64,000 bases of DNA, from contig CAWGLD010000004.1 of assembly GCA_963823335.1 (NCBI GenBank), forward strand, positions 4,382-68,381. The letters run 5' to 3'. Source of the DNA: an uncultured delta proteobacterium. GTDB taxonomy: Bacteria > Desulfobacterota > Desulfobacteria > Desulfobacterales > B30-G6. A model generated the notes under the pieces. That model did no database searches. It saw only the letters and a program-made list of their open reading frames with translations, and was not told where the DNA came from. Of this stretch, positions 25,279-61,157 are shown in pieces. Within the stretch, counting starts at the first letter, position 1. Each line of letters starts with the position of its first letter. Made by a program: the position numbers and the translations under genes.

Positions 25279-25290
25279 TAAAGGACGATT

Positions 25291-34259: not shown

Positions 34260-34454
34260 GGATCATCTCCCAAGGAGTTGATCCAAATTAAGGATTCAAG
34301 GATTCCAGGGGTCCAGGGCTCGAGTGAGATGAAGTGAGGCATCAGCTAAATGCTTAAGAATTATAAAGAGTTAAAAGTCTGGAAAACAAACACTTGAATC
34401 CTTGAATCCTTGACTCCTTGAACCCTTTCTCCCAATCTAATTGGGAGAAGATCC
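34260..34454 (+). mobile_element. Miniature cassette copy C3 (same deletion junction as C2)
   Basis: GGATCATCTCCCAAGGAG...ATGCTTAAGAATTATAAAGAGTTAAAAGTCTGG|AAAACAAACACTTGAATCC...TTGGGAGAAGATCC. Flanks are TTAATTTT / ATAACTTTTT. Confidence 0.8.
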
Positions 34455-34481
34455 ATAACTTTTTACAGAGGAGGATAGACA

Positions 34482-34838: not shown

Positions 34839-35055
34839 ATAGTGGAAAATTCCGACGCTTTCTCTAACCATTCGCACGGATGGCAGTTGCTTGACAAAAA
34901 GGTCATTTTTATGTAGCATAAATGTTCCACTGTCTGGAATAATGCTTTTTAGGACACAAGGTAACTTGTTGCGGTTTTCATTAGAAGTTATCTCAAAAGA
35001 GTTTTTTGGCCCAGTTGATGACTTCTAATAAGATGCCTTATAGCCCGGTGAAACG

Positions 35056-35442
35056 ATGATTATCCATTTTTTAAAAAGACTTCTCACCCTTAGATTCCGT
35101 AAACGGCCGCGATTCAACGCACGGGACGGTGTGTATGTCATCATGGAAAACTCGGCCAGATCAAACCAGATCCACAACATCAGTATGGGAGGGCTGGCTT
35201 TTGATTATGAAGATACCGGTTATCTCATCGGACAAAGAGCCTATGAATTAAAAGTTATGAGTGACCAGAATCTAAAACTCGATCGCATACCCTTCAAGAG
35301 GGTTTCTGATTTTTCGGTGGGCGAAGTGTTGTATCCCTACCGGAAAATAAAGCGACAGTCTGTACAGTTTGGAGGATTGACGAGCTCCCAGAAAGTGCAA
35401 CTCAAGCATTTCATCAAAAACAACACCATCGGCAGGGCCTGA
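35056..35442 (+). CDS. PilZ-domain protein
   Basis: RFRKRPRF (RxxxR) and NISMGGLAF (NxSxxG). Confidence 0.75.
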   Translation: MIIHFLKRLLTLRFRKRPRFNARDGVYVIMENSARSNQIHNISMGGLAFDYEDTGYLIGQRAYELKVMSDQNLKLDRIPFKRVSDFSVGEVLYPYRKIKRQSVQFGGLTSSQKVQLKHFIKNNTIGRA

Positions 35443-35529
35443 ACACGACAGGGTGCCCTTAAATAATTGTATTTGTTAAGCAGGGCTGTTTGCGCTGCTT
35501 TTTTTTTGTAACGTTCCTCATGGTCCTAC

Positions 35530-35730
35530 ATGGAAAATATCGTTAATATTATCAAAACTATCCCCATCCTGATAGCCGCCATCCTGCTCGGCAACTGGTT
35601 TCTGTCTGAACTCAAACGTGCCAATGCAACCGGCAAACCCTGGTACACGGCCTATATTTCGATACCGGGATTGTTGATACTGCTGGCCATACTCGTAACC
35701 CCCCTAGTCCTATGGCTGATGTCACATTGA
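35530..35730 (+). CDS. Small two-TM membrane protein
   Basis: 66 aa with two hydrophobic helices. Overlaps the helicase start by 19 nt. Confidence 0.4.
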   Translation: MENIVNIIKTIPILIAAILLGNWFLSELKRANATGKPWYTAYISIPGLLILLAILVTPLVLWLMSH

Positions 35731-44719: not shown

Positions 44720-46003
44720 ATGAGAATCATCACCACCCATCGAAATTCAGATTTTGACGCGCTGGCGTCTGTAATGGCTGTCAGAATTCTCTTTCCCGAC
44801 GCAATTCCCGTTCTTCCTAAACAGATCAATCCCAATGTAAAGGCATTTTTGTCGATCCACAAGGATGTTTTCGATACCCATACCGTCAATGAGGTGGATC
44901 TGGCCCTGGTGGGGCACCTGATGGTCGTTGATACCAACAAATGGGAGCGCCTGGAGGGGATGGAGAGCCTCAAGACAAGAAACGATCTCGATATCCAGCT
45001 CTGGGATCATCACCCCATACGTGGCAATATCGACACCCCCTGGATGGTCAGTGAGCTTACCGGAGCCACCATTACCCTGCTGCTCCGCAGAATCAAACAG
45101 GAGCGAAAGATTCTAAGCCCCATTCAGGCAACCCTTTTTCTCCTGGGGATCTACGAAGACACGGGCAATCTGACCTTCCCATCAACCACGGCGGAAGATG
45201 CATATGCTGCGGCCTATTTGTTGGAGCGAAAAGCCGATTTGATGGTGGCCACATCCTTTTTACGGCCGGCTTATGGTGAAAAACAGAAAGAGATTCTTTT
45301 CAACATGCTTCAGGATGCCGAACGTATTCATGTAAAGGGCCACACCATCAGTGTCTGTCACATAGATATCGACGGTCATGTAGAAAGCCTGGCGGTGGTC
45401 ATGCGCATGTATCGCGAGATATTGAATGTCGATGCCGCCGTCGGAATCTTCGCCAACAAGCAGCGAAATACCTGCATGGTCATCGGCCGGAGCCATGCTG
45501 ATGAAATCGACATCGGTCTTGTCATGCGGGGTCTTGGCGGTGGTGGGCACCCTGGGGCCGGCTCTGCCATGTTGAAAGACAGTCATCCGGACACTGTTCG
45601 TGAAAAGATCATGGCCCTGATTCAGGGAAATCAGCCGGCATCGGTTCAAATAAGCGACATCATGTCTTTTCCGGTGGTAACGGCGCGCTCCAGCGACAGT
45701 ATGGAAGAAGTGGCTTTTCTGTTGCGTAATAAAGGATGTACGGGCGTACCGATACTGGAAAACGATGAACTTGTGGGGATTATCTCCAGACGGGATTTTA
45801 GAAAAATAAAAAAAGCGACCCAGCTGAAATCGCCGGTAAAGGCGTATATGAGCAGAAATATCGTCACCATTTCTCCGGGCACGAGCCCGACCCAGGCAGC
45901 AAACCTGATGGTGAAATACGATGTTGGGCGGCTTCCTGTGGTGCAAAACAACCGGGTTATCGGAATTGTGACCCGCTCTGATACGATGCTTTACTTTTAC
46001 TGA
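44720..46003 (+). CDS. DHH/DHHA1 phosphoesterase with C-terminal CBS pair
   Basis: HRNSDFDALAS, LWDHH, GGGGHPGAGSA (DHHA1). Two CBS repeats follow (MSFPVVTA...; MSRNIVTI...). Confidence 0.8.
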   Translation: MRIITTHRNSDFDALASVMAVRILFPDAIPVLPKQINPNVKAFLSIHKDVFDTHTVNEVDLALVGHLMVVDTNKWERLEGMESLKTRNDLDIQLWDHHPIRGNIDTPWMVSELTGATITLLLRRIKQERKILSPIQATLFLLGIYEDTGNLTFPSTTAEDAYAAAYLLERKADLMVATSFLRPAYGEKQKEILFNMLQDAERIHVKGHTISVCHIDIDGHVESLAVVMRMYREILNVDAAVGIFANKQRNTCMVIGRSHADEIDIGLVMRGLGGGGHPGAGSAMLKDSHPDTVREKIMALIQGNQPASVQISDIMSFPVVTARSSDSMEEVAFLLRNKGCTGVPILENDELVGIISRRDFRKIKKATQLKSPVKAYMSRNIVTISPGTSPTQAANLMVKYDVGRLPVVQNNRVIGIVTRSDTMLYFY

Positions 46004-46081: not shown

Positions 46082-46594
46082 TCAGCGTTTGGTCTCATGT
46101 TGCTGAATTATATGCTGTATTTTTTCTTCAACATAGGCGCTAAGATCCGCAATGGTTTCAGAGGATATGTACCCTATATCCCGGGCCAGGCTTTCCACTT
46201 TTTCTTCATCGATGCCTGTGACCTTGTTGACCAGAAAAGCGTCAACTTCTCCTTCTTCCAGGCATTTTCCACAGGCCCCTACAGCACCGATAAAATTATC
46301 CTCCACAAAAACCGGCACCACAATCTTGACAATACCGGCATCGCACTCCTCAACAACCGTCTGCCGGCTGTTGCGAGCCATGACAGCCAGGTTCATGTGC
46401 GCCACTGCACAAATAAAGCTTTGGCCCTTGTCAGTCGCTTTGATCTCCGGACACAAGCGGTTCACCCAGGATTTATAAGGTGTAATCCGAATGCCTTCCG
46501 TGTTGAAGACATTGGTATCCAGCCCATATCGTTCATGAATCTCTTTCTCCAAATTCATCCATTCTTCCACCGACAAAAGATCATTCAATTCCAT
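46082..46594 (-). CDS. Stand-alone PocR-type sensory domain protein
   Basis: 170 aa. The pattern ...LCPEIKATDKGQSFICAVAH...ECDAGIVKIVVPVFVEDNFIGAVGACG matches the recalled PocR ligand-binding domain layout. 14-nt overlap with oleD. Confidence 0.65.
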   Translation of the reverse strand: MELNDLLSVEEWMNLEKEIHERYGLDTNVFNTEGIRITPYKSWVNRLCPEIKATDKGQSFICAVAHMNLAVMARNSRQTVVEECDAGIVKIVVPVFVEDNFIGAVGACGKCLEEGEVDAFLVNKVTGIDEEKVESLARDIGYISSETIADLSAYVEEKIQHIIQQHETKR

Positions 46595-47645
46595 GTTCCA
46601 TCCAATCCTTTAGTTTCTTCAATCCCTCCGTTAGCGAGACTTCCGGTACATAACCCAGATCCCTTTTAGCGGCCCCGATGTCGAACCAGTGACTTTTGGA
46701 GAGCTCGTTGGCAAGAAAGCGGGTCATTCGGGGTTCAGAAGCGATTCCAAGACTTTTATAAACACATTCCAGAACCCAGCCGATGGCGTACGCCAGACCT
46801 TTGGGAATCGATTTCCTTACCGGAGGCTGACCGGCTGCAGCCAACAGGTGGTTCACCATGTCCCACAGATAAACAGGCTCTCCCTGGCTGATAAAATAGA
46901 TACGGCCTGAAAGCTGCGGGTTTGTCATCAGCTTTTCGGCAGCCAGGATATGGGCCTGGGCCGCATTATCGATATAGGTTGTGTCGATACGGTTTTTTCC
47001 GTCACCAACCCGCCTGAGAGTCTTGGCCTGTTTGATAATTCTAGGCACAAACTGGGTGTCTCCCGGTCCCCATATCAAATGGGGTCGCAGTATGATTGCC
47101 CGCACGACATCTTTCTCACATGCCTGGACAACAAGCTGTTCAGCCTTGGCTTTTGTTTTCTGGTAGGAGGTCTGATAGCGACCGGGGTAGGGGGCCGACT
47201 CATCCACACCCATCACGTCGGCATCCCCGTCATAAACCACACTGGGCGAACTGGTATGAATCAGATAGCCAATCTCTTGCCGTTCGCAGGCTTCTACAAT
47301 GTGGTGGGTACCAACGACATTGGTCTCATGATATCCTTGATAGGGACCCCACATCCCGCCGGTTTTGGCCGCCACATGAAACACAAGATCCCTTTCCTGA
47401 CAAGCCCGTTCCACGGCGACCGGATCACTGATATCTCCCTGAATCTGTTCTATTCTGAGTAGATCGAGTTCCGGATATAGCTTGCGGCTCATGGATCTGA
47501 CATTTGGCGTATATCCCAAAAGGCGTTTGACAATCGCTTTTCCAAGAAACCCACCGCCGCCCGTCACAAGTACCCGTGCGTCTTTAAGAGGGGTGATCCC
47601 TGCACTTGTTCCATCGGTTTTCACCGCACTCTGGCCTCCGCCCAA
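46581..47645 (-). CDS. oleD: OleD, NAD(P)-dependent 3-beta-HSD/extended-SDR reductase of the olefin pathway
   Basis: VLVTGGGGFLG, YQKTK (YxxxK). Last gene of a FabH-like / hydrolase / AMP-ligase / SDR series. Confidence 0.85.
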   Translation of the reverse strand: MGGGQSAVKTDGTSAGITPLKDARVLVTGGGGFLGKAIVKRLLGYTPNVRSMSRKLYPELDLLRIEQIQGDISDPVAVERACQERDLVFHVAAKTGGMWGPYQGYHETNVVGTHHIVEACERQEIGYLIHTSSPSVVYDGDADVMGVDESAPYPGRYQTSYQKTKAKAEQLVVQACEKDVVRAIILRPHLIWGPGDTQFVPRIIKQAKTLRRVGDGKNRIDTTYIDNAAQAHILAAEKLMTNPQLSGRIYFISQGEPVYLWDMVNHLLAAAGQPPVRKSIPKGLAYAIGWVLECVYKSLGIASEPRMTRFLANELSKSHWFDIGAAKRDLGYVPEVSLTEGLKKLKDWMEHGIE

Positions 47646-49285
47646 ACTGTCAGCTTCTCACGAAATATCTTTGAATTGTGCCGTATATCCACTGGAAATG
47701 CCTTGTGAAACAAGAAGGTGTCGATTTCCTGGGTAAGGACAGACTCTTTGGCGAGTTCCAACAGCTCTTCGATTATCTTGCGCTTGTTTTTCTTCTGACG
47801 GTTTTTTTCCAGTTCAATGCATATAACCGGTTTTTGGTTAGGGCGCGGCCTCACCCCCACCAGGGCACTTCTGAAAACCTGGGGATGACGATTGAATATC
47901 GCCTCACAGGGAATGGTAAACAGGGTCTGGGTCTTTGTTATGATACGGTGGCTTTTTCTTCCGCAAAACCAGAGTCGTTTTTCCCTATCGATCCACCCAA
48001 GATCTCCCATGCGGTGCCACAGACTGGTGCTCTCTTCTATTTTGGAAAGCAAGTCATCCCGTTTTCTTTCAAAATACTGGTGGGTTACCAGATCACCTTT
48101 GACCGTAATCTCGCCGATTTCACCGTCCGGAACAACCAGATCATTGGACCATTGGGGAATCATGTCGTCACTTATGCGGATGATACGTACCTTCAATCCC
48201 GGCAAAACCCGACCGACGCAGATTCCATAACCCTGTTCGCTCAACTGGCGTGTCTTTTCCAGGATCTCATGGCTCCCCATGACCGATACCGGCATGGCTT
48301 CGGTGGCCCCGTATCCGGGAAAAATTTCGGTTTCCGGTTCCAGAAGGTGACTGAAACGCTCAAGGTTGTCGGGTAATGCCGGCGCACCAGCCGAAATCAC
48401 CCTTTTCAGTGATGGAAGCTTGATGTTCAGAGCCTGACCGTATCGTCCCACCCGGTTGAGCAGTGCCGGAGACGCAAACATATTTGTCACACCATGATTC
48501 AGAATCAGCTCGATAATACGTTCAGGGTTCACCTGTGCCGGTTTGGTGGGATCCATGTCCGGTATCACGGCAGTCATACCGAGCGCTGGATCGAACAGTG
48601 CAAACAGCGGAAATGTCGGCAAATCGATTTCACCGGGCGCAATCTCAAATCGCTCCCTGATATGTCGTACCTGGGCATCGAAGATGCCGTGGGTATAGAC
48701 AACACCCTTTGCCGGTCCTGTACTGCCGGTGGTAAAGAGAATTGCCGCTGTTTCGTCCTTGTGGGTTTTTGCCATTGGAAATGGTTTCCAGGGTGTTCTG
48801 CGAATATCTGAAAGCCTGGGGCCGCCCCAAAACCATCGCTTACCGACCGTTATGGACATATTCAATGATTTAAAATAACTGGGCGTGCACATACGCAATG
48901 CATGGGCCAGGGGTATACCGATAAAAGCGGTTGCTTTGCTCTCTGACAGACAGTTGAGCATTCTCTTGATTCCCATTCCCGGATCCACCACCACGGGTAC
49001 CGCGCCGGTCTTAAAAAGAGCAAACGTCAGGGCAAAGAATTCAAGACCCGGTTTTAGCATCAGAATAGTCCGGGTACCCTGTTTGATACCATGTCGAATG
49101 AGGCCGTGTGCCAGGCAATCGGACTCCCTGTCCAACTGTCGGAAGGTGAGATGAGCGTAGGCGATTCCCCTGTCCCGGTTCTGCGGCAACGGGCAAACCA
49201 CAGCCCGGGTGTAGGGTTGCTTGCGTGCCATTTCCCGAAGCAGGGAGGCCACATTCACCATTCTATCTTCTGGTATTTCATTCAT
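47621..49285 (-). CDS. oleC: OleC, AMP-dependent synthetase family (beta-lactone synthetase)
   Basis: AMP-binding motifs FTTGSTGPAKGV and GYGATE. 25-nt overlap with oleD. Confidence 0.85.
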   Translation of the reverse strand: MNEIPEDRMVNVASLLREMARKQPYTRAVVCPLPQNRDRGIAYAHLTFRQLDRESDCLAHGLIRHGIKQGTRTILMLKPGLEFFALTFALFKTGAVPVVVDPGMGIKRMLNCLSESKATAFIGIPLAHALRMCTPSYFKSLNMSITVGKRWFWGGPRLSDIRRTPWKPFPMAKTHKDETAAILFTTGSTGPAKGVVYTHGIFDAQVRHIRERFEIAPGEIDLPTFPLFALFDPALGMTAVIPDMDPTKPAQVNPERIIELILNHGVTNMFASPALLNRVGRYGQALNIKLPSLKRVISAGAPALPDNLERFSHLLEPETEIFPGYGATEAMPVSVMGSHEILEKTRQLSEQGYGICVGRVLPGLKVRIIRISDDMIPQWSNDLVVPDGEIGEITVKGDLVTHQYFERKRDDLLSKIEESTSLWHRMGDLGWIDREKRLWFCGRKSHRIITKTQTLFTIPCEAIFNRHPQVFRSALVGVRPRPNQKPVICIELEKNRQKKNKRKIIEELLELAKESVLTQEIDTFLFHKAFPVDIRHNSKIFREKLTVWAEARVR

Positions 49286-49531
49286 AGGCAGTAAGCAGTC
49301 AATGTCATTGATGTAAGGTGATTCCCGGTACCGTGTAATGTAGCGCAGGTCTTCAGACCTGCAAAAAAGCTCTGCGCTAGATCATTAAGTTAACGGCATT
49401 GAGCAAGCAGCAAGTTGCAAGCAGCGTATCGCTTGAGGCTTAGAGCTTCAAGCCTCAACTTTCGGTTTTATCATCGATAGCTTAACGCTTATTGTTAACT
49501 GCTAACAGTTTTAATTACAACAAGTTATAGA
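49286..49531. repeat. Mosaic of palindromic modules filling the oleB-oleC spacer
   Basis: F-type hairpin 49340-49380. GCAAGCA words 49401-49425. Hairpin TTGAGGCTT-N8-AAGCCTCAA 49433-49458. TAAC/TAAG words at both ends. Confidence 0.7.
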
Positions 49532-50452
49532 TCAATCTCTTAAACTGTCTTCTAACATGAAGTTACGGATGCGGTCAATGACTGTCTCTGCGGCATCCTC
49601 CAGGATATAATGACCGGCATCCGCAAAGGTATGCACACGGGCGTCGGGAAACCGATGACGCCACTCATGGAGATATGCCTTCGTAAAAACAAAATCCTTC
49701 ATGCCCCAGCAGATAAGCATGGGCAAATTTCTCAGACGGTGCAATTCGTTCTGTACCGCTTTCACCGTTTTAAAACTTGGATCGCCTGGTTTGATAGGGA
49801 TGTCTTCCACAAACTTGAGGGTTGCAATCCGGTTCTGCCAGCAGTTGTATGGCGCCAGTAGCCCCGATCTCACATCACCGGGCAGACCCTTGGTCGTTGC
49901 CATGAAAAGGGCGCTGCGTGCAAAAGCGTTGAATCCTAAAACCGCCAGTTTTGCAAAGGGCTTGACATGGCGGATCAATCGCAGCCTGAAGGGCAGGGAA
50001 CGGCCCTGGGGGGGGAAGAACGCTGCGGTGTTGAGCAGGATAATTTTATCTATGCGCTCCAAATGCCTGAGAGCATAAGCGATACCGATCATACCGCCCC
50101 AATCGTGGAGTACTAAGGTTATTTTCTCTTTTATTTCCAAGTGATGGATGAAGCTTTCCAGATCGTCGACCCGGCAGTCAAGCGTATAACCATAGTGCTC
50201 CAGGCCTGGTTTCTCTGATAACCCACAGCCGATATGATCCACTGCGATCGCCCTGAAGTCCGGAGAGAGATCCTGAATGAGTCTGCGGTAATAAAACGAC
50301 CAGGTCGGGTTGCCATGCACCATGATGACCGGCGGTCCTGCCCCTTGGTCCACATAGTGATACTTGAACCCATTCACGTCCATAAAACGGGATTCGAATG
50401 GATACAGGTGCCGGCATTTCGATAAATCAATGGGCTTTGGTTTTATTTTCAT
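49532..50452 (-). CDS. oleB: OleB, alpha/beta hydrolase (haloalkane-dehalogenase-like; beta-lactone decarboxylase)
   Basis: HGNPTWSFYYR, LHDWGG. C-terminal catalytic His context GHYILED. Confidence 0.85.
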   Translation of the reverse strand: MKIKPKPIDLSKCRHLYPFESRFMDVNGFKYHYVDQGAGPPVIMVHGNPTWSFYYRRLIQDLSPDFRAIAVDHIGCGLSEKPGLEHYGYTLDCRVDDLESFIHHLEIKEKITLVLHDWGGMIGIAYALRHLERIDKIILLNTAAFFPPQGRSLPFRLRLIRHVKPFAKLAVLGFNAFARSALFMATTKGLPGDVRSGLLAPYNCWQNRIATLKFVEDIPIKPGDPSFKTVKAVQNELHRLRNLPMLICWGMKDFVFTKAYLHEWRHRFPDARVHTFADAGHYILEDAAETVIDRIRNFMLEDSLRD

Positions 50453-50495
50453 CAGCTACCCTCCAAACCTCAGACCCTCCAACCCTCTGTTTCTA

Positions 50496-51536
50496 TCACC
50501 ACTTTATTCCCAGCATCAAACAATTCAACCCGCTACCGATACCCAGCATCCCCACCAGATCACCTGCCTTGAAAAAATCACGCTCGGCGGCGATGGCGGC
50601 TGTAATGGGCAGGGATACGGTCCCGATATTGCCCAGGTACTGAAAGGTTGCAAAATCGCGTTGTCTGGGAATACCGATGGCTCTCAGGATCGTGTCCTGG
50701 TGGGTCGAACCGACCTGGTGGCAGACAGTTCTGTCTGGTTGTTCTGCGGTAAGTGAGAGCGTCTGGCGAAATTCCCGGTATGTCTCTATACCCAGTGCGA
50801 CGCCATGCTTCAAAACCCCCACAGAGTCCGTGTTCATGACCTGTTTTCCCACAGCAGATATCCCGCTGTCAGGTCCCCAGGTGCAGAGATTGTGGTGTTC
50901 GGTGGCGCATCGACAGGCCCCCCCCAGGAGTCGGTGATCTTGATCAGACAGGGACGCATCCGTCAGGAGTACGGCAACAGCCCCTGACCCGCCCGTCAGG
51001 GTGGCGACTGTCTGCTTGAACACATCCATGTTTCCGGCGCTCAGCATTCTTTGGATGGTGCTGTCGACAATCTCACGGGCGGATTCACAGGACACCACAA
51101 GCCCGGCAGATACCTGGCCGAGTTCGATGGCATTGGCCACCTGAACCAAACCATTCAGGATTCCGAGACATGCATTGGAAACATCGTAAACCACTGTGTC
51201 CGGTCCGAGACCCAGACCGTTGGATACAGCACACGCTGTAGCCGGTTCCAGGTTATCGCGACACACACCGCCGTACACCAGCATCTGGATTGATCGGGGG
51301 TCTATGCCAGCCGCGGCAATGGATTTTTCCCCCGCAAGAATCGCTCCCTGTGCCATCCGGAACCCCGGATCCCAGAATCTTCTTTCGCGAATACCCGTGA
51401 GGGACTCCAACTGCCCTTTCTGAAAGTGAAGCACATCGTACAGCGGCGCCAGACGCTTTTCCAGATCCGCTGACGTCACGACATTCGGCGGAAGTTCATA
51501 TCCAAAGGAGGCAATACTGACTTTTGAGTATTTCAT
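50496..51536 (-). CDS. oleA: OleA, FabH-like thiolase performing head-to-head Claisen condensation
   Basis: DVSNACLG (Cys), EPATA, HQVG (His), GNIGTVSLP (Asn). Start moved to ATG 51536 because the track N-terminus (KHQTPNTKHQT...) is a translated GGTGTTT repeat. Confidence 0.85.
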   Translation of the reverse strand: MKYSKVSIASFGYELPPNVVTSADLEKRLAPLYDVLHFQKGQLESLTGIRERRFWDPGFRMAQGAILAGEKSIAAAGIDPRSIQMLVYGGVCRDNLEPATACAVSNGLGLGPDTVVYDVSNACLGILNGLVQVANAIELGQVSAGLVVSCESAREIVDSTIQRMLSAGNMDVFKQTVATLTGGSGAVAVLLTDASLSDQDHRLLGGACRCATEHHNLCTWGPDSGISAVGKQVMNTDSVGVLKHGVALGIETYREFRQTLSLTAEQPDRTVCHQVGSTHQDTILRAIGIPRQRDFATFQYLGNIGTVSLPITAAIAAERDFFKAGDLVGMLGIGSGLNCLMLGIKW

Positions 51537-51596
51537 GTTTTTTGGTGTTTGGTGTTTGGTGTTTTGTGTCTGGTGTTTTGTGTTTGGTGTTTGTTT
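51537..51596. repeat. GGTGTTT/GTGTTTT word array in the spacer between the megasynthase and oleA
   Basis: TTTGGTGTTTGGTGTTTGGTGTTTTGTGTCTGGTGTTTTGTGTTTGGTGTTTG. Followed at 51635-51655 by CAGCATCCCGGCTTCCCGGCC, a near copy of 37418-37438. Confidence 0.8.
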
Positions 51597-51677
51597 TAGG
51601 GCTAAACGCATCAATGATGACATCGAGCTGTAATCAGCATCCCGGCTTCCCGGCCTTATAGCCTCATGGCCTCCCAG

Positions 51678-54600
51678 CTATCTGTCAAGCGGGACCAGCC
51701 CGATGGAAAATTGTTCCATATGATAGATGGGCAGCCCGTCGACTGTCAACAGGCCATCGGCGGTGAGCACGGGAAATGGCTCTTCCACCACGTTTGTCAC
51801 CAGGGCAAGAAGCTCGATATGCCTGTTTTCTGGTGTGATTTGTCCACGATAGGTCCATCGATGACGGATATCCGATTTCAAGGTAAAGCAGTGATCGTCC
51901 CCCAGATGCGGCCATCGATCCAGGGCCATGAATTTCAGCACTTGTATCAGAGACTCCAGACCCAGCGACCCCGGGCAGACCGGATCACCCAGAAAATGAG
52001 CCTTGAAAAACCATTCCTTGGGCAGAACTTTTTTGGAGGCCCGGATGATACCGTATCCATGGGGTCCGCCTTCCGGGAAATAGGCCTCGATGTTATCGAT
52101 CATGCGTATGGCCCGTCCCGGCAACACCGCATTTTCATGGACATGACCGGATAAATCGTCCGGTGCCGTGGGTGTATGATCCACCATCGCTGTCTGCCTG
52201 TTGGTCACCGAATCCTCAGGCAGGGTATAGCGAGACATATCGATCTGATGCAATCCTACCTGCGCTGCGAGAGCTTCCTGGGTAAAAAAACCGAAATGTG
52301 TCTGCCCCTGATAAATCTTCTGCCCGGATTGTAATATCTGGAAATCAAAGTGCTCGATAATCATGTCACCGGCTTCAGACACCTGGGTCAGACGCGCTCG
52401 CGTGGTCAGGGGTCCTTTTTTTGCAGGCACATCCCTGCATAGTTCAGCAATACCACCCAGATTTCTGAATCTGAGATCTTTTTCACTTTGTAAGGCCGAA
52501 CCCAGGTATGCCGCCAGCCAGCCGCAGGGCTGAAGCGCAATTTCATTCAAAACGCAAAATGGCATAACAGGTGTACGGTTGGCCCTGAAAAACCAGTCAC
52601 CCGGGTCGATATCCACCTCGGACTCGATCCAATCACCGGGTTTTAATACCCAGGGCTCCGGTGCAACGTCAACCACCCGGTCCATGAAAAGATAGGGCGG
52701 TCTGGGCAACCTGGCAATGAAGCGCTGTTTGTCAAATACCTGATAGGGTTTTCCAAATGCTATAGAGGGTCTGCCGAACGAGAATTCCTCCAGCAGTTTC
52801 CGACTGAATGTTCTTGTACCGTTCTCTTTTTTTTCGGAAGGGTAGCGTTTTTCTGTGGTGATCTGCTGTGGGCCGATTTTCCAAATGCGTTCGATCTCTT
52901 CACGCGTGCCCTGGGTCAGTTTCATGGAAATACTGTCAAAATAAACAATGTACGACCCATCGGCGGTCATGTGGGCATCGGCAATCGCATATGGCTCCGG
53001 GTCATAGCCCATCTCTTTGATGTCGATTTCATATACAACATGTCGGGTGTTCGGTGTTACCGGTCCACGGCATTTCAGCACACTTTCAACCCCCACAACC
53101 GGTTCATAGCAGGCGCTTTCATTTTCACTGATCCATCCGATACGTTGCAGAAATATCCGCAATGTGTGTGCACAGCATTCGTACATGAGCGTGCCCGGCA
53201 TGACCATGTCATCGACGAAATGACAGGTCAGGTACCAATCGTCCGGATGAATATCCGCTTCGGCACGTATCAAGCCCTTACCAAAGGTCCCTCCATAGGG
53301 GTCGAATGTGAGAACACGATCGATGAGGTGCATGCGCCCGCCCGGCAGCCACAGAGAAGAAGCGATGCTTTTACCCTGAAACGCAGTACCAAATGCGTCC
53401 CCGAGTCGGCCTGACCTCAGGGCATCCAGGGCGGCCTCGGAAAATGTTTCAATTGTTACCGGGGCCGGATGCCGCCACTCAGCACCAAAATCTTCTTGCC
53501 TGCGAGTTCCATCCATCTTTTTAGCGACAATACCCCCGGAATTCCGCACCTCCTCCTCGGTAAAGAAGCCTGCACAGCCGTTTTTCATCTGAATGAACAG
53601 GTTGTCTTCGATAAACCCTTTGAATTTAAAGAAGAAAAGGTGCGTGTCTCCCTGACGGATAAATTTTTCGATCTCGATGTCGTAGCGAATCGTCTCGCCC
53701 GGCTGTGGCAGTCCCCTGAAAAACGTCACACAGGCATCCAGCAACCGATAGGTTCTGCGGCCCTTGACCACATGATCGATCCCCAGATACGAACTGAGGA
53801 ACAAATCTGCCTGACCAGCCTCCACCGAGATACAGGCAGGCGCGCGGTTACCATCCAGATACCAGGCCTCTGGAAGAACATCGTGTTCGGTCACAATCCG
53901 GCCAGTGCCCAGAGAACACTTTTCACCCACAAGGGAAACAACCCGATCCACGAGCATGAGGGGTTCGTCCGGAAGCCGCACCCGGGCCTGGTAGGTGTCG
54001 ACCACCTGGAATTCAGGACCGAATACCTCGGCCACAGATCCTGTAGCAAAAGTCAGACAGTCTTTCCTGGAATAAAGCGGGGTAACCCCTGATGAGGTCT
54101 GGTGCGTCCCGGGGCCTTTGGCAATGACCCCGGTTTTACGGATCTGCTTCATATGACCGGACAGGAGCTGGGCCTGCAGTGCCATGGCCTCCTGGTAGCC
54201 CTTTGTCATCTGGCTGGAAAATTCCAGGAACTGCTTGTGTGTTTCGGTGGTTGTCTGGGCATTTTCCTGAACAGACCGCATGAGGTCCCGGACTATCTGG
54301 CTGGAGACACTTTCGTGCAGCGGCCCTGAAATGGAATCCCTCCCCAACGGACGCTCGTTGGGTTCATGGATTTTCGATTTTTCCCCAGCTGAAATGCGTG
54401 AATCAATATGGCCCGGCAGTAAAGGTGGCGGCCCGGGGAAGGGCAGGGGAGCACCGACACGCAGATGGATTTGACGCGATGATTCTTTTTTGGATCCGGT
54501 TGCCGGTCCTGACAATGTATCATCATATACCTGATTCATTTCAGGAGGATACGAAAGACCTCCATATAATTTGTCGAGATGGACACCCACTTTTGCTGCG

Positions 54601-57600
54601 CTGAGCGCGCCCAACAGCTTCAATATTGAAAGGTATTCGTTGTCTTGGCTTGAACTGACAGCCAAAGCAAGATGGGGGCGACCTTCGAGCGTCTGCCCTA
54701 TCATTCGTGTGCAGGATGCCCGGGGTCCCATTTCGACAAAAACACGGATACCATCGTCATAGGCCTGTTCAATGGTGCGGGTAAAGTCGAACCCGTTGCG
54801 TGCCTGATCCAGTATGGATGCAGCAGCGTTTTCACTGGTCAGGTCATATGTATGGCCCCATGCACAACTGTAAAAACGCATAGTTGCGGATATGTCAGTG
54901 GGGTACAGATGAAGTTGGCGGTAAGCCTCCTCCACAGGTCTGAGCGCATCACAGTGAACCGTCACGACACCGTCAAGGGGAACGGCGTTACACCCCAGCA
55001 TTTTGACGACCTTCCAGATTGATTCTTTCTCGCCGCCTAACACCGATTCCCTGGGTGAATTAATGATCAGCAGACGGGTCATGGGAAATTGTTTAACAAC
55101 AGACATGACCTCGTCTGCCGCCCGATCAACCGCAACCACCTGCCATTCAAATCGTTTTTCAGGTTCGATGTTCCACGCCTTCCGGAGGGATAGACAGGGC
55201 CCGGTCAAGTCTGTCTTGAACAATGGTGATTCGAGCATCCGTTTCAAAAGCCGGTCTTGACCTTTCCAGACACCCATGGCAACCAAGCCAGCGGTTTCCC
55301 CGAGGCTGTACCCGATGACCGCCCTGGGTGGCGCCATGAACTGCTGCATCAGTCTGGCCGTGACAACCCCGTGCATTACCTGCCCGAAAATCGCCAACAG
55401 CGGATCGGCATGGATCCGATGCAAGGCCTGTATTTCCCATTGGTTTTCCCAGGACATCCGATAAGGCACAAAGCATTCGGGAATCATTTGCCTTTTCAAT
55501 TGCCCGGTTTCTGCATCCACCTGACCTATAAGCAATGGCCATTGGACCCCCATGTCCCGTCCCATACCAAGATAATGGTTTCCGGAGCCAGGAAAAACAA
55601 AGGCAATGCCGGCCGACTCCCCCAGGGGCTCGGGTGTGTAAAAGATGTTTGCATGCCCCGGAGAAGCGTCTGTCTTCCCTGAAGAAACGAGCTGTTTGGC
55701 TCTAAGAATCATGTTTTCGGCATCGTGAATATCTTTGACCACCAGGCTGAGCGCTCTTTTCTTACCCGGGGGTCTAGGTCTCTTATTTTCGTACCAGACC
55801 CGCGCGAGCCACTCCAGGGGTACGTCCATGGAATCCCATTTCCGGATCTGTTTCCAAAGGGTTTCCAGACCATCTAAAATCTCCTGGTCATGATCGCCTT
55901 CCACGACAAAAAGACCGCTGGACTGGTATCCCAGAGGGCGAAGTTTTTCCTGAACGAATCCAGGGGGCGATACCATCCCGGGGTCTTCATACCCTTCCAG
56001 AAGGACATGCATGCAGTTTCCATCGGACGTCATGGCACCCACACAGGCCCGGCGAGGATTGGTTTCCCGATCCCGATACCAGTACTGAGGTTTGATGGGA
56101 ACATGAAAACGTTCTTCCCATGCGATATCTCCGGGCCGTCGATAATCCGGCATGGGTGGTAAAAGGGCATGGTAAAGACACAGGCTTGTTTTCACAAGGG
56201 AAGACAAGCCTGATGCGGCACCCATGTGTCCCACAATCGCTTTGGTGCTGCTGACGGCGCAATGCAAGCCCTTTTCGGTCAAAACGGTATTCAATACCTT
56301 TGATTCCACGACATCTTCGGTAGGAATACCGCTTCCGTGTGCCTCATAGAGGCTGATATCCGACGACCCCACACGAGCATCCTGAATGGCACGCTCCAGG
56401 GAAACTTGGTATGCTTCCTGTGTTACGCCCCCACCTTCCGTCGCCATCCCACTGGCAGCGCCGAAGCCATTGACAATCGCATAAATACGATCTTTTTCCG
56501 CAATGGCGTCTTCCAGGCGTTTGAGCACCAGTGCCAGGCCGCCTTCTCCGGGAAGCGTCCCCTTAGCAGATGAATCAAAGGGCAATACAGGCGCTGTCTC
56601 GGAACAGGGTCGGGTCTGATGGTGTGTGGCCAGATATCTGATATCTCCGGTAAAATCCACAGCACCCACCAGCATCATGTCTGTGTCATTGTCCTGCAAG
56701 GCCCGGACACCTATTTCGAGGGCTTTGATACCGGAAGCTTCTTCGCAGGAGACAACAAAACTGGGCCCACCCAACAGAAATTCCTTGGCAATCCGGCTTG
56801 CAATGACACTGGTCAATGCACCCAGAGTCCGGTTGGATGTCAACGGTCGGCTTATAGAAGCTTTCAGGGAACGGACCCACTGGGCGGCATGGGGGTCCTG
56901 AAGGTTCAAGCCATATTTTTTTTCCCATCGGCGGATGCTTTCATTCACGATCCATCTTAAATGAAAATTGGTGGCCTCAAAGTCAAAATCCGCTCCCACC
57001 ATCACGCCCATGCGTGTCCGTTTCTCCCTGAGGGCAACACCGGCATCGATGAGAGCGTTTCGACAGAGCTTCATCATGAGCAGATGCTGCGGCAGAATAT
57101 CCGGTATTTCATTGGGGGGAACGTGAAACAGACCCATATCCAGGGCAACATCTTCCATGAACGCACCGTGTTCCGGAACCACCTGCCGGAAATAGGTATC
57201 CGGTCCGATTTGTGTGCCCCGAAGACGAGAGTGATGTTCGATGATGGATTGCCCCTTGAAAACAGCCTCCTGAAAAGCCCTCAGGGTCGACAGTTTCCCC
57301 ATGGCAGCGCTCATTCCGATAATCGCCACCAGGGGTTTTTCACTTGTCGATGTTTTAGAATAACCGTCTTCATCACCGTTCCCGGGGACAGCGTGATGTT
57401 GCAGATTTATGGTACCTCCAGCTCGCCTATTGGGACGGGTCCATTCTTCCAGAAGCATGTGGGCATTGATACCGCCGAATCCAAATGCGCTCACAGCGGC
57501 ACGACGGGGGGTGTCGGCATCTCGTAGACCCCAGTCGGTCACTTCGGTCTGGACCCTAAAAGGACTGTCGATCAAAGGACTGTTATCTGTCGGCTCCGAA

Positions 57601-58817
57601 TAGTTGTTTGATGGCGGTATGTTTTTATGTTTTAATGCAAGTAATACTTTAAGTGTTCCGGCTGCCCCGGCACCTGTTAGCAGATGCCCGATAGTAGCTT
57701 TGACCGAGCCGATGGGACAGACACCGGCATGGGTTGCAATGCCCTGCCACAGGGTTGCGAGACTGCTCAGTTCGGTATGATCCCCAAGGGGTGTGCCTGC
57801 CCCGTGGCATTCAATCAGGTCGACCTGATCCGGTGTCCACCCGGTGGTGTCATAGGCCATGCGCATGGCCCTTACCTGGCCTTCGCTCTTGGGCGCCAGG
57901 AGACTACCCCCCATATCGTTGGAAAGCCCGATGCTTTTGATGACCGCCAGTATATTGTCCTGGTCCCTTACAGCATCCTTCACCCGTTTCAGCACAAACA
58001 TGCCGGCACCTTCCCCGACAACCAAACCATCCGCAGATTTGTCAAAAGGTGCGCAACGACCCGACGGTGACAACGCGCGAAGCTGGGAGAACCCAACCTG
58101 CGTGTAAAGGCAGTCAGGCCGGGAGACCCCCCCCACCAACATGGCATCTGCCCTGTGTTGTGCCAGGGCATCGCAGGCAAGTTTGAATGCCACCAGCGAT
58201 GATGCACAGGCCGCATCCAGGGTATATGTACCGTTTCCGAGACCAAGGCCTTTGGCCAGCAACGCTGCTGGAAAACCGGTCATTTTGCCGGCCAGGCACT
58301 GGTTTCTGGTCAAAACCGACGCAATATCCCGGATCATGGGATCAAATAATCGTTTTTCGAGATAAGCCCCCAGAATTTTCTCCGCAACCAAAGAGGAAGC
58401 CTGCGTAGGAAGGGCGATGGCGGCCAGAATCACACCGGTTCGTTTCCGGTCGATGAATTCATGCCTGGCAGTGTAAAAAGCCTCTCTACCTGCGTGCAGC
58501 ACGATTCGGTGAAGTGGGTCAAGATCACGAACCAGGTCCTGGTCAAGATCCATATTGTCAAAACAGTAGTCGATATCCCGGTTCAGAAGGCAGGCTATCC
58601 TGGATATGGCTTTGTCGGGCCGCAGTTTATCTGCGGTCATCACAGCAGGGCCAACCCGCCAACGATCTTTTCCAACCACCTGGCAGGCATCTCTTTTATG
58701 AAGCAGATTATCCCAGAAGACATCCAGGGTGGTCGCGCCGGGTAAGAGTCCGGCCATACTGACAATGGCGATATTGTATGGCCGGGATGTTTGCATATAT
58801 TTGGTATCTTTCTGCAT
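51678..58817 (-). CDS. PUFA-synthase-type megasynthase, PfaC/Pfa3-like: KS - CLF(KS-like, Cys replaced) - AT - 2x FabA-like DH; no ACP, KR or ER recognised
   Basis: KS motifs DAACASS, ECHGAGT, KATIGHLLTGAG. Second KS-like domain has VSCEEASG at the active-site position. AT has GYSLGE. DH motifs are HFVDDMVMPGTLMYE and HFLGDPVCPGSLGLE. 2379 aa. Confidence 0.85.
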   Translation of the reverse strand: MQKDTKYMQTSRPYNIAIVSMAGLLPGATTLDVFWDNLLHKRDACQVVGKDRWRVGPAVMTADKLRPDKAISRIACLLNRDIDYCFDNMDLDQDLVRDLDPLHRIVLHAGREAFYTARHEFIDRKRTGVILAAIALPTQASSLVAEKILGAYLEKRLFDPMIRDIASVLTRNQCLAGKMTGFPAALLAKGLGLGNGTYTLDAACASSLVAFKLACDALAQHRADAMLVGGVSRPDCLYTQVGFSQLRALSPSGRCAPFDKSADGLVVGEGAGMFVLKRVKDAVRDQDNILAVIKSIGLSNDMGGSLLAPKSEGQVRAMRMAYDTTGWTPDQVDLIECHGAGTPLGDHTELSSLATLWQGIATHAGVCPIGSVKATIGHLLTGAGAAGTLKVLLALKHKNIPPSNNYSEPTDNSPLIDSPFRVQTEVTDWGLRDADTPRRAAVSAFGFGGINAHMLLEEWTRPNRRAGGTINLQHHAVPGNGDEDGYSKTSTSEKPLVAIIGMSAAMGKLSTLRAFQEAVFKGQSIIEHHSRLRGTQIGPDTYFRQVVPEHGAFMEDVALDMGLFHVPPNEIPDILPQHLLMMKLCRNALIDAGVALREKRTRMGVMVGADFDFEATNFHLRWIVNESIRRWEKKYGLNLQDPHAAQWVRSLKASISRPLTSNRTLGALTSVIASRIAKEFLLGGPSFVVSCEEASGIKALEIGVRALQDNDTDMMLVGAVDFTGDIRYLATHHQTRPCSETAPVLPFDSSAKGTLPGEGGLALVLKRLEDAIAEKDRIYAIVNGFGAASGMATEGGGVTQEAYQVSLERAIQDARVGSSDISLYEAHGSGIPTEDVVESKVLNTVLTEKGLHCAVSSTKAIVGHMGAASGLSSLVKTSLCLYHALLPPMPDYRRPGDIAWEERFHVPIKPQYWYRDRETNPRRACVGAMTSDGNCMHVLLEGYEDPGMVSPPGFVQEKLRPLGYQSSGLFVVEGDHDQEILDGLETLWKQIRKWDSMDVPLEWLARVWYENKRPRPPGKKRALSLVVKDIHDAENMILRAKQLVSSGKTDASPGHANIFYTPEPLGESAGIAFVFPGSGNHYLGMGRDMGVQWPLLIGQVDAETGQLKRQMIPECFVPYRMSWENQWEIQALHRIHADPLLAIFGQVMHGVVTARLMQQFMAPPRAVIGYSLGETAGLVAMGVWKGQDRLLKRMLESPLFKTDLTGPCLSLRKAWNIEPEKRFEWQVVAVDRAADEVMSVVKQFPMTRLLIINSPRESVLGGEKESIWKVVKMLGCNAVPLDGVVTVHCDALRPVEEAYRQLHLYPTDISATMRFYSCAWGHTYDLTSENAAASILDQARNGFDFTRTIEQAYDDGIRVFVEMGPRASCTRMIGQTLEGRPHLALAVSSSQDNEYLSILKLLGALSAAKVGVHLDKLYGGLSYPPEMNQVYDDTLSGPATGSKKESSRQIHLRVGAPLPFPGPPPLLPGHIDSRISAGEKSKIHEPNERPLGRDSISGPLHESVSSQIVRDLMRSVQENAQTTTETHKQFLEFSSQMTKGYQEAMALQAQLLSGHMKQIRKTGVIAKGPGTHQTSSGVTPLYSRKDCLTFATGSVAEVFGPEFQVVDTYQARVRLPDEPLMLVDRVVSLVGEKCSLGTGRIVTEHDVLPEAWYLDGNRAPACISVEAGQADLFLSSYLGIDHVVKGRRTYRLLDACVTFFRGLPQPGETIRYDIEIEKFIRQGDTHLFFFKFKGFIEDNLFIQMKNGCAGFFTEEEVRNSGGIVAKKMDGTRRQEDFGAEWRHPAPVTIETFSEAALDALRSGRLGDAFGTAFQGKSIASSLWLPGGRMHLIDRVLTFDPYGGTFGKGLIRAEADIHPDDWYLTCHFVDDMVMPGTLMYECCAHTLRIFLQRIGWISENESACYEPVVGVESVLKCRGPVTPNTRHVVYEIDIKEMGYDPEPYAIADAHMTADGSYIVYFDSISMKLTQGTREEIERIWKIGPQQITTEKRYPSEKKENGTRTFSRKLLEEFSFGRPSIAFGKPYQVFDKQRFIARLPRPPYLFMDRVVDVAPEPWVLKPGDWIESEVDIDPGDWFFRANRTPVMPFCVLNEIALQPCGWLAAYLGSALQSEKDLRFRNLGGIAELCRDVPAKKGPLTTRARLTQVSEAGDMIIEHFDFQILQSGQKIYQGQTHFGFFTQEALAAQVGLHQIDMSRYTLPEDSVTNRQTAMVDHTPTAPDDLSGHVHENAVLPGRAIRMIDNIEAYFPEGGPHGYGIIRASKKVLPKEWFFKAHFLGDPVCPGSLGLESLIQVLKFMALDRWPHLGDDHCFTLKSDIRHRWTYRGQITPENRHIELLALVTNVVEEPFPVLTADGLLTVDGLPIYHMEQFSIGLVPLDR

Positions 58818-59047
58818 TATTGGGCTCTACATACCCGAGTCATACCCATATTTCAACTACGAATAAATTCGCTTCACGAATTTATAATACTGGTTTTAAA
58901 TACGTACTATATGCGAATTTTTGCAGGATTGCATTTTGATTTGGTTATGGGAAACTGACCATACTACGCCTGCCGGCAGAACAGATGGGCCTGACATGCT
59001 GATGCCTTGTCAGGCAAAATACGAATCTCTAATAGGAGGAAAACGCC

Positions 59048-59600: not shown

Positions 59601-59695
59601 ATTTTGAATTAAATGAATCAAATCCTTTGAAAGATGGGTTGCCGAACCCCAAGGAAGATCTGAACCGCCATTTAGGTAAAAGAAAGGAGAGAGCC

Positions 59696-60106
59696 ATGGA
59701 CTACGCCTACCAACGACTGGACATCTGGAAAAAGGCGGTCGATCTTTCCATCAAGGTCATTCAATGTATCGCCGAAGTGGCCAATGAGGTTGAAACACAG
59801 CGCCTTACCGAGGAAATCGAAATGAGTGCCGTCAATATTGCCACAAACATCGCCAAGGGAAAAGCCTGTTTGTCGGAGGAGGATTTCATTTATTATCTGT
59901 TTTTGTCAAAAAGATCACTGTATGAAACCATGACACTGCTGGAAATTCTCAAAGCCAAACAGTTGATTACCGACGAGTGCTACATGGAAATCGAAACAAA
60001 AGGAAAAAACATCACTGGAATGCTGATTGAATTTATCCGCTCAGTCAAAGAAACCGGCAGCCCCTATCAGGCAGAAAACTACCAGGCTGCTTACAGAAAC
60101 CGATAG
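59696..60106 (+). CDS. Four-helix-bundle protein (divergent 23S-IVS-protein/Avd-like), copy a
   Basis: RLDIWKKAVDLSIKV...SAVNIATNIAKGK...FLSKRSLYETMTLLEIL. AAGGAGAG RBS before ATG 59696 (the track start at 59627 is less likely). Confidence 0.8.
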   Translation: MDYAYQRLDIWKKAVDLSIKVIQCIAEVANEVETQRLTEEIEMSAVNIATNIAKGKACLSEEDFIYYLFLSKRSLYETMTLLEILKAKQLITDECYMEIETKGKNITGMLIEFIRSVKETGSPYQAENYQAAYRNR

Positions 60107-60121
60107 AACAAAAGGAGATAA

Positions 60122-60514
60122 ATGATGACCTATATCTATGAAAAGCTCGACGTCTGGCAAAAAGCCATGCAGTTTGCCGGGGATGTCATTGATTCCATGT
60201 CGATGATGAACAGCAAAGACTACCATCAAGAGATTTTAGAGAAAACAGAAGGGAGTGCAGCCGGTATCGCCGGCGCCATTGCCATGGGAAAATCCTACAG
60301 TTCAAAACACGATTTCGCCAGACATCTGTATCATTCCAGGGGCGCCTTGTACGAAACCATGACTCTGTTGGAGTTGTTGAAACGTAAACGCCTCGTTGCC
60401 GAAGATAAATTTGCTGATTTCGACACCAGGGCAAACCAACTGACCGCCATGCTGACCGCCCTGATTAAATCGATTTACACACCCAAATCGGACAATGGCA
60501 AACAATCATCATAA
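60122..60514 (+). CDS. Four-helix-bundle protein, copy b (paralogue of copy a)
   Basis: KLDVWQKAMQFAGDV...GAIAMGKSYSSKHDFARHLYHSRGALYETMTLLELL. AAGGAGA RBS. Confidence 0.8.
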   Translation: MMTYIYEKLDVWQKAMQFAGDVIDSMSMMNSKDYHQEILEKTEGSAAGIAGAIAMGKSYSSKHDFARHLYHSRGALYETMTLLELLKRKRLVAEDKFADFDTRANQLTAMLTALIKSIYTPKSDNGKQSS

Positions 60515-61157
60515 GCGTCAACCTCCTGAGATGAGGCTGATAATTTCAGTCGATTACAGAGAAAGGCCTTCCGGACTTCCCGATCTTCTGGTTGATGCAG
60601 GATTTGAGGTGGCTATAGTCAAGCTCCCTTATTGTGACTACATAATTAACCATGGAATATCCATCGAAAGAAAAACCGGCAGGGATTTCGCTATCTCAAT
60701 CATCGACGGCAGACTATTTAAACAGGCCAGTTGGATGCGAAAGCGAACCAATCGGCCTGTTTTTCTCCTGGAAGGAAGTCCGTTTCATGTCGATGTGGAC
60801 ATACATAAGAAGGCGATTAAGGGCGCAATGCTTTCTATACAAGTCGCATGGAGCATCCCCATCATTTATTCTCGATCTATGGAGGAAACATGCAATATTT
60901 TCAGAACACTGGCAACCCAGCAGGAAAACCAGACCGAACGCCTGGAACTCAGGCACGGTTTTCGATCCAAACGGATGATCTCAAAACGGTTGTATCTTCT
61001 ACAAGGGCTTCCAAATATTGGTCCGGTTATGGCTCTGAGATTGATCAGACATTTTAAAACAGTCCACCGTGTTATGAACGCCAGTATCGATGAATTAACG
61101 GAAGTGGATGGCATTGGGGAAGATACTGCTGATAAGATCCAGGAAATTCTCCGGTAA
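60495..61157 (+). CDS. ERCC4-domain (XPF/Mus81/Hef-type) nuclease with C-terminal (HhH)2
   Basis: VDYRE...CDYII...ISIERKTGRDFAISIIDGRLFKQ...PVFLLEG. The HhH segment is LQGLPNIGPVMALRL...EVDGIGEDTADKI. Overlaps 4HB-b by 20 nt (alternative ATG at 60531). Confidence 0.9.
   Translation: MANNHHKRQPPEMRLIISVDYRERPSGLPDLLVDAGFEVAIVKLPYCDYIINHGISIERKTGRDFAISIIDGRLFKQASWMRKRTNRPVFLLEGSPFHVDVDIHKKAIKGAMLSIQVAWSIPIIYSRSMEETCNIFRTLATQQENQTERLELRHGFRSKRMISKRLYLLQGLPNIGPVMALRLIRHFKTVHRVMNASIDELTEVDGIGEDTADKIQEILR

Follow-up and report, generated by a model that had tools for sequence, protein, structure and literature searches.

The window analysed here is a stretch of 64,000 nucleotides (nt) of contig CAWGLD010000004.1, from an uncultured bacterium of the Desulfobacterales, and its subject is an operon for a putative hydrocarbon pathway. 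On the minus strand, positions 46082-58817 are occupied by six co-oriented open reading frames (ORFs): pfaBC, which encodes a fusion of the PfaB and PfaC subunits of a Pfa-type secondary lipid synthase, the olefin genes oleA, oleB, oleC and oleD, and pocR, for a small protein with a PocR domain. A first-pass annotation had described one tightly spaced block, in which a megasynthase gene was followed by four genes. The block stands, and is conserved and under purifying selection, but five genes follow the megasynthase, the last one, of 170 amino acids (aa), having been missed. The features are the following.

pfaBC, 51678..58817, minus strand: 2379 aa, ketosynthase, chain length factor, acyltransferase and two dehydratases (KS-CLF-AT-DH-DH), a PfaB/PfaC fusion; from Pfam, NCBIfam and the Protein Data Bank (PDB).
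KS domain, 57429..58772 (aa 16-463), minus strand: triad Cys204 (DAACASS), His338 and His378.
CLF domain, 55980..57326 (about aa 498-946), minus strand: KS-like; the second ketoacyl-synt stretch in Pfam.
Probable PfaB-type AT domain, 54588..55643 (aa 1059-1410), minus strand: GYSLGE with Ser1171; Acyl_transf_1.
Two FabA-type dehydratase/isomerase units, 51681..54068 (aa 1584-1969 and 2006-2379), minus strand: each a pseudo-DH plus a DH.
pfaBC-oleA spacer, 51537..51677, minus strand: A/C-rich repeat with ACACCAAA units, read directly from the sequence.
oleA, 50496..51623, minus strand: ORF of 375 aa; thiolase-fold enzyme of head-to-head Claisen condensation; from PRK09258 and PDB.
oleB, 49532..50452, minus strand: haloalkane-dehalogenase-like alpha/beta hydrolase (beta-lactone decarboxylase); from Pfam, NCBIfam and motifs.
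oleC, 47621..49285, minus strand: probable AMP-dependent olefin beta-lactone synthetase; from NF045786, NF045785 and PRK09274.
oleD, 46581..47645, minus strand: short-chain dehydrogenase/reductase of the 3beta-hydroxysteroid dehydrogenase type, probable 2-alkyl-3-oxoalkanoate reductase of the NADPH-dependent kind; from NF042422, NF042423 and Pfam 3Beta_HSD.
pocR, 46082..46594, minus strand: stand-alone PocR sensory domain of 170 aa; from Pfam PF10114.
Intergenic region from which pfaBC and a ComEA-like HHH_3 gene diverge, 58818..59045, no strand: presumed operon promoter; gene map transferred from a nearly identical contig (L087).

The Pfam content of pfaBC comprises two ketoacyl-synthase units, Acyl_transf_1 and four FabA stretches (FabA E 3e-80), and NCBIfam assigns its N-terminus to the KS of PfaA and polyketide synthases, its middle to pfaB_fam and its C-terminus to FabA (equivalog). 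The closest solved structure is PDB 6RIW, deposited as 'ORF10' (E 3e-110, residues 15-881), which we take to be the KS-CLF didomain of Moritella PfaC. Aligned with each other, the two KS-like units share 32% identity (E 2e-35), and the second one is a CLF because its active-site Cys is replaced by Glu (VVSCEEASG). The AT reaches 89 bits with TIGR02816 (pfaB_fam), under the cutoff of 144, and its GYSLGE motif is invariant across the homologue alignment. The catalytic-His motifs of the FabA units (HF..D.V.PG) are HFVDDMVMPG at 1866 and HFLGDPVCPG at 2274. All catalytic residues of the protein are invariant in 8 homologues, with identities down to 52%. A KS, a Cys-less CLF and two FabA-like dehydratase/isomerase units, the marks of the PfaC type, are thus all found, together with a probable PfaB-type AT, so that the domain order read in the first-pass annotation was right; this architecture had been named 'pfaBC fusion [KS-CLF-AT-DH2]' by Shulse & Allen (PMC3098273). 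Pfam finds no PP-binding, ketoreductase (KR) or enoyl reductase (ER) domain in pfaBC. Therefore, lacking a carrier and both reductive domains, the protein is predicted to be unable to work alone: to judge from its domains, it has no means to carry a chain, to reduce it or to process it to the end, and to call it an elongating module by itself, as was done earlier, overstates what it holds.

The four genes behind pfaBC encode OleA and OleB and, probably, OleC and OleD, as had been proposed. OleA scores 474 bits with PRK09258 (cutoff 285), and its PDB matches are 3fk5 and the 3ROW/4KTI series (E 1e-55 to 1e-56), deposited as '3-oxoacyl-[ACP] synthase III' and presumably all Xanthomonas (campestris) OleA. 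The motifs SNACLG, HQVG and GNIGT, noticed before, lie at residues 149, 302 and 331, and in the alignment with 3fk5 the catalytic Cys (DVSNACLG), His (HQVG), Asn (GNIGT) and the Glu of the LEP motif, which OleA enzymes contribute from the partner subunit, all line up. OleB carries HGNPTWS at residue 46, also noticed before, HDWGG with the Asp nucleophile (LHDWGG in the alignment) and GHY; haloalkane dehalogenase models match it at E 1e-47, under their cutoffs, in libraries without an OleB-specific model. OleC scores 636 bits with NF045786 and 624 bits with NF045785, under the equivalog cutoffs of 900 and 850, and 741 bits with PRK09274 (cutoff 478). OleD scores 383 bits with NF042422 (E 1e-114) and 367 bits with NF042423, under the cutoff of 580, and matches Pfam 3Beta_HSD at E 5e-52. 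The cutoffs that OleC and OleD fail to reach were built on Xanthomonas and Shewanella proteins; the olefin models are by far the best specific matches of both.

The gaps within the operon measure 141 nt between pfaBC and oleA (to the ATG at 51536), 43 nt between oleA and oleB and 246 nt between oleB and oleC, and the downstream genes overlap. The earlier reading had reported overlaps of 25 nt and 14 nt among the last of its genes; the former is indeed that of oleC and oleD, but the latter lies between oleD and the sixth gene, pocR. The ATG at 51536 is probably the true start of oleA, giving 346 aa as called in relatives. Directly before it lies the A/C-rich repeat (ACACCAAA-like units, 51537-51600), and reading of the sequence ahead of this likely start reveals no Shine-Dalgarno-like sequence. 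In the relative of 83% PfaBC identity (L001), the gene calls break oleA into an ORF of 173 aa and another of 113 aa (17546-18405), through either an assembly frameshift error or a pseudogene. The oleB-oleC spacer, described as the only long gap of the operon, contains a perfect palindromic hairpin with a 9-bp stem at 49433-49458 (TTGAGGCTT...AAGCCTCAA).

The sixth gene matches Pfam PF10114 over its full length (E 1e-16). Among the loci fetched from public genomes (described below), pocR follows oleD in L001, L002, L004, L008, L015, L021, L028, L030, L050, L069, L075 and L078, which takes in the window lineage and other Desulfobacterales (L015, L028, L030, L050, L069 and L078). It takes the slot after oleD where the Geobacter-type cluster carries pfaE, the gene of the phosphopantetheinyl transferase (PPTase). 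The PocR-domain protein is a conserved, putative accessory of the operon. A literature search found no link between a PocR domain and an ole operon.

Homologues of PfaBC number more than 6000, and the closest named ones belong to the Desulfobacterales or to metagenome-assembled genomes (MAGs) labelled 'Deltaproteobacteria'. For synteny, 80 pfaBC loci of species-representative genomes, taken from assemblies and metagenome contigs, were fetched and scored by tblastn. A contig 99% identical to the window (L087, ENA sample ERZ25039603) has the identical block and flanking genes, and the relatives at 83, 79, 77, 72, 70 and 58% PfaBC identity all carry the pfaBC-oleABCD block, with pocR behind oleD in each of these six whose contig reaches far enough. 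Where gene maps exist, these relatives of 58-83% also share the flanking genes of the window. The oleABCD genes are contiguous and co-oriented in the window, and their order is identical in at least 40 fetched loci. The wider look for KS-CLF-AT-DH2 beside oleA, which had been suggested earlier, used the 67 loci whose downstream sequence reaches 1.5 kb or more: ole genes stand right behind pfaBC in 55 of them (82%), in several phyla, so that the adjacency is not due to chance. The gene directly after pfaBC is oleA in 49 of these 67 loci, and in 6 Desulfosarcina-like loci it is oleB, with no oleA in the slot. In the latter (L028, L030, L031, L058, L069 and L076, including D. variabilis Montpellier, NZ_CP159846.1), pfaBC is followed after 21-45 nt by oleB, oleC and oleD; with no oleA at this junction, the gene of the committed condensing enzyme has to lie at another place, if the genome has one at all.

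Long flanks on either side are available for 49 loci. Of these, 18 combine pfaA with ole genes, 22 carry ole genes but lack pfaA within 8-10 kb, 5 show pfaA alone, and in 4 both are missing. The window belongs to the second class, and pfaA is usually detached in the Desulfobacterales. The order pfaD-pfaA-pfaBC-oleABCD, with pfaA adjoining pfaBC, is found in Geobacter, Geotalea, Pelovirga, Planctomycetota and one Burkholderiales MAG; in the Elusimicrobia, pfaA adjoins pfaBC in one locus (L038) and stands about 3 kb upstream of it in the other (L054). A Geotalea locus (L048) shows the full arrangement, with pfaD, pfaA (four acyl carrier protein (ACP) domains), pfaBC, oleA and, after oleD, the PPTase gene pfaE, all contiguous and confirmed by Pfam, and oleB, oleC and oleD identified by tblastn. 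This complete Geobacter-type colinear series, pfaD-pfaA-pfaBC-oleABCD-pfaE, is not present in the window, which holds pfaBC-oleABCD only. Intermediate layouts, with pfaA 2-5 kb upstream of pfaBC, occur in L005, L025, L033, L078 and L088. In a neighbour-joining tree of 68 PfaBC proteins there are two clades. One consists of Desulfobacterales, mostly with a detached pfaA, and the window lineage branches from within it; in the second, pfaA adjoins pfaBC wherever the upstream flank suffices, except in the Elusimicrobia locus L054. Desulfonema magnum (L003, CP061800.1) has an intact pfaBC of 2491 aa with no pfaA or ole gene within 10 kb, adjoining a type III CRISPR-Cas locus with a fusion of reverse transcriptase and Cas1.

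All six genes are under purifying selection. Compared with relatives, pfaBC has a ratio of nonsynonymous to synonymous substitution rates (dN/dS) of 0.17-0.19; the ole genes range over 0.06-0.19 and pocR over 0.08-0.13. The low dN/dS of pfaBC, together with the invariance of its catalytic residues, indicates that the gene is in use. We infer co-transcription of pfaBC and the ole genes. A scan for consensus promoters and terminators was, as a whole, not above the shuffled background, and an Rfam scan of the window returned two tRNAs only, with no riboswitch in the operon leader.

Whether this exact arrangement had been described was left undecided in the earlier reading; in kind, it had been. 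The strict anaerobe Geobacter bemidjiensis carries pfaD-A-B-C-oleABCD-pfaE in tandem and makes a C31:9 polyene (PMC4882568; PMC3098273); this product, hentriacontanonaene, was shown by Sukovich et al. 2010, as cited in PMC3098273 and PMC4882568. The window resembles this type in its fused pfaBC (KS-CLF-AT-DH2), followed on one strand by oleA-oleB-oleC-oleD in a strictly anaerobic host, and its PfaBC shares 40-43% identity and the domain order with the Geobacter and Geotalea homologues. It differs in having no pfaD-pfaA upstream and no pfaE downstream, and in the pocR gene after oleD. In Shewanella, OleA links the Pfa synthase to the olefin pathway, its acyl substrates having been suggested to be supplied by the synthase's ACP domains (Allemann et al. 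2019, PMC6463001), and the polyene depends on the whole pfa operon (PMC6463001). Shewanella oneidensis and S. pealeana have pfaA-E and an unlinked oleABCD, with OleA taking the Pfa-made 16:4n-3 and OleBCD finishing C31:9, and the two operons are adjacent in Photobacterium profundum SS9 (PMC6463001). The gamma-proteobacteria keep PfaB and PfaC separate, their pfa operon is complete and a thioesterase gene, pfaT, is often linked to it (PMC6463001); no pfaT-like gene was noticed beside the window operon, where no search was aimed at it. With Xanthomonas campestris OleABCD the window shares the OleA Cys, His and Asn and the LEP-Glu, and for its OleC and OleD the best specific matches are models made from Xanthomonas proteins; there, however, OleA is fed by type II fatty acid synthesis (FAS) with no pfa gene nearby, and OleC and OleD of the window stay below the model cutoffs. 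PfaC of Moritella marina (6RIW) has the pair of KS and Cys-less CLF in common with the window protein, but it lacks the embedded AT and sits in a complete pfaA-E cluster producing docosahexaenoic acid. The pairing of pfaBC with ole genes is therefore not new in kind: the window carries a published system in rearranged form, one that is frequent among public Desulfobacterales genomes.

The reading preferred here, with a probability of about 0.68, is that the window would hold the ole-proximal half of a split Pfa/Ole pathway, with PfaA, PfaD and PfaE encoded elsewhere, PfaBC and OleABCD kept together and a C31:9-like polyene as the product. Both the presence of pfaA, pfaD and pfaE elsewhere in the genome and the identity of the product are inferred, and the earlier forecast of a (poly)unsaturated long-chain hydrocarbon is a sensible one. 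In the proposed mechanism, PfaBC would contribute KS-CLF as the second condensing pair, an acyltransferase of the PfaB type and two dehydratase/isomerases of the FabA type, the latter introducing cis double bonds with no need for oxygen. It would act on acyl chains held by the tandem ACPs of PfaA (KS, malonyl acyltransferase, several ACPs, KR and DH), and the enoyl reductase PfaD and the phosphopantetheinyl transferase PfaE, whose genes presumably lie elsewhere in the genome, would also be required. OleA would join two polyunsaturated acyl chains head to head, OleD would reduce the beta-keto acid, OleC would close the OleD product to a beta-lactone, and OleB would decarboxylate this lactone to a long-chain, C31:9-like polyene.

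Several results weigh against this split. The 64-kb window contains no pfaA (its ACP/KR part), no pfaD and no second ole set even at E<0.01, and there is no ORF with an ACPS domain, as expected of PfaE, among the window ORFs scanned. Nor do seven relatives show pfaA, pfaD or pfaE within 10 kb, and among the relatives of 58-83% identity pfaA is missing from the upstream side wherever 10 kb of it could be read. PfaA searches with the L005 and Desulfonema ishimotonii queries gave no match from the window lineage among the best 120 of more than 7500, which is a weak negative; with the latter query no PfaA of D. magnum was among the best 120 either, although PfaA of D. limicola and of Desulfococcus did appear there. 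Upstream of oleA, the 3' end of pfaBC contains a strong sigma-70-like site (TTGACA-18-TATCAT, 51749-51720) that agrees at 11 of 12 positions. Finally, as detailed next, the slot that holds pfaD-pfaA in a sister lineage is filled by other genes, and it is possible that the pair was lost rather than relocated. The description of the gene as an orphan is thus correct locally, with no pfaA, pfaD or pfaE in 64 kb, and is overstated for the genome. An alpha/beta-hydrolase fragment at 29416, checked as a remnant of pfa or ole genes, had no match at E<0.01.

Mirror-image loci exist in two sister lineages, L086 and L089, which have pfaD-pfaA and no pfaBC within 10 kb. In L086 (1307-17916) the pair lies between two genes, one for a DHH-CBS protein and one for a DEAD/ResIII helicase; in L089 (6761-18019) the helicase gene stands on the matching side, and upstream there is merely a CBS fragment of 97 aa. 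The window has counterparts of both bracketing genes, DHH-CBS at 44720-46003 and the helicase at 35712-37085, which are 61-63% identical to the L086 proteins and alike in order and orientation, but the slot between them is filled by ABC transporter, S-methyltransferase, Usp and radical-SAM genes instead of pfaD-pfaA. The pair was therefore lost from this position of the window, or never inserted there. In L005, pfaBC-oleA lies directly upstream of Maf-YggS-QueH-M48, genes found at 20.2-24.1 kb in the window, and this different placement means that the region has been rearranged. In L033 the helicase gene separates pfaA from pfaBC, in L063 it immediately precedes pfaBC, and the ole operon of the window lineage, like those of L028, L040, L069 and L073, has the DHH-CBS gene behind it. 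The recurrence of these two genes near pfa and ole suggests an ancestral Desulfobacterales neighbourhood that was later broken up. The L086 contig, which comes from the sample of L087, was also considered as the missing half of the window genome and rejected: the DHH-CBS and helicase proteins encoded there reach no more than 61-63% identity with those of the window and are equally distant from all other lineages, and its contig is in both ENA and NCBI, that of L087 in ENA only; the tetranucleotide correlation was uninformative. Between pfaD and pfaA, on the opposite strand, there is an ORF of about 190-200 aa in L086 (8851-9438), L088 (9290-9850) and L089 (8787-9389); the L086 copy had no Pfam match in the scan, none is on record for the other two, and the window has no homologue.

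An unlikely alternative, though the likeliest one, is that pfaA and pfaD are truly lost and that PfaBC would work on acyl-ACP of type II FAS, borrowing AcpP, FabG and FabI/K, with OleA condensing the unsaturated chains. The absence of pfaA and pfaD from the window and from 10 kb in relatives, the occupied slot, the persisting purifying selection on pfaBC and the intact lone pfaBC of D. magnum, with no D. magnum PfaA among the best 120 matches of the Desulfonema query, all favour it, and a Pfa-type secondary lipid synthase is reported (PMC8174602) to act as a genetic suppressor of lethal mutations in type II fatty acid synthesis. Yet no PfaC-type protein is known to work without PfaA, the Shewanella polyene needs the pfa operon as a whole (PMC6463001), the absence of pfaA concerns the window and nearby flanks, and the sister-lineage pfaD-pfaA loci lacking pfaBC fit a split system better than loss. 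In a stronger and still more doubtful form of this idea, the window lineage would be without any PfaA or PfaD, as might be further Desulfobacterales whose pfaBC stands alone, KS-CLF-AT-DH2 would be a self-standing, trans-acting module of unsaturation and elongation that works on type II FAS acyl-ACP and passes polyunsaturated chains directly on to OleA, and the PocR protein would be its lipid-binding partner. If true, this would be a minimal, previously unknown anaerobic way to polyene hydrocarbons.

It has less in its favour that pfaBC and the ole genes are mere neighbours, with separate promoters and separate products, a secondary lipid and an olefin. The sigma-70-like site upstream of oleA, the gaps before oleA and oleC, and the Desulfosarcina junction without oleA would fit such independence, which is nevertheless improbable: the adjacency persists across several phyla even where pfaA has moved away, the promoter scan stayed at background level overall, and the functional link of Pfa and OleA is experimentally established in Shewanella (PMC6463001). 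Least probable of all is that pfaBC is a functionless remnant and OleABCD uses ordinary acyl chains for a conventional C27-C31 olefin as in Xanthomonas and Micrococcus, for although the partner genes are missing locally and type II FAS is what usually feeds an Ole pathway (PMC6463001), the frame of 2379 codons is intact in each relative checked, its dN/dS is low, its catalytic residues are invariant and the oleA junction is kept in 49 loci.

The window adds no new principle, and what it documents is that the pfaBC-ole junction has been kept by selection in Desulfobacterales while pfaD-pfaA drifts off, and that a PocR-domain protein has joined the operon. The kept junction and the presence of PocR in the operon point to a specific hand-over from PfaBC to OleA. 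It had been anticipated that the gene could turn out to be a displaced pfaC of a set encoded elsewhere; a pfa set split over two loci is indeed most likely, but it is pfaD-pfaA that is detached, and the pfaBC-ole junction is the conserved core. To our knowledge, very long polyunsaturated hydrocarbons such as C31:9 are made by Pfa-Ole coupling only. In strict anaerobes, it has been discussed as a protection against oxidative stress. The detached layout of the Desulfobacterales and the pocR gene were not found described in the searchable literature, and nothing specific was found there on sulfate reducers and hentriacontanonaene. Sulfate reducers, including the cultured Desulfosarcina variabilis, are flagged as likely, so far unreported polyene producers.

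Around the operon, the upstream side of pfaBC carries the divergent ComEA-like gene, two genes of 23S-rRNA-intervening-sequence proteins, an ERCC4 nuclease gene and a MarR-like gene, and downstream the convergent DHH-CBS gene is followed by the ABC transporter and other genes. The tandem pair of 23S-rRNA-intervening-sequence-protein genes and the ERCC4-HhH nuclease gene (59627-61157, plus strand) are kept upstream of pfaBC in the whole window lineage (L001, L002, L004 and L087). Farther away, at 24299-35700, there is a patch of about 11 kb with a low GC content (37-45%, compared with 47-53% elsewhere), which borders tRNA-Leu(TAA) at 24299-24387 and contains a gene for an AbiEii toxin, a truncated ORF of the alpha/beta-hydrolase type and numerous ORFs that lack a Pfam match. 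It looks like an island integrated at this tRNA gene, between the Maf and helicase genes.

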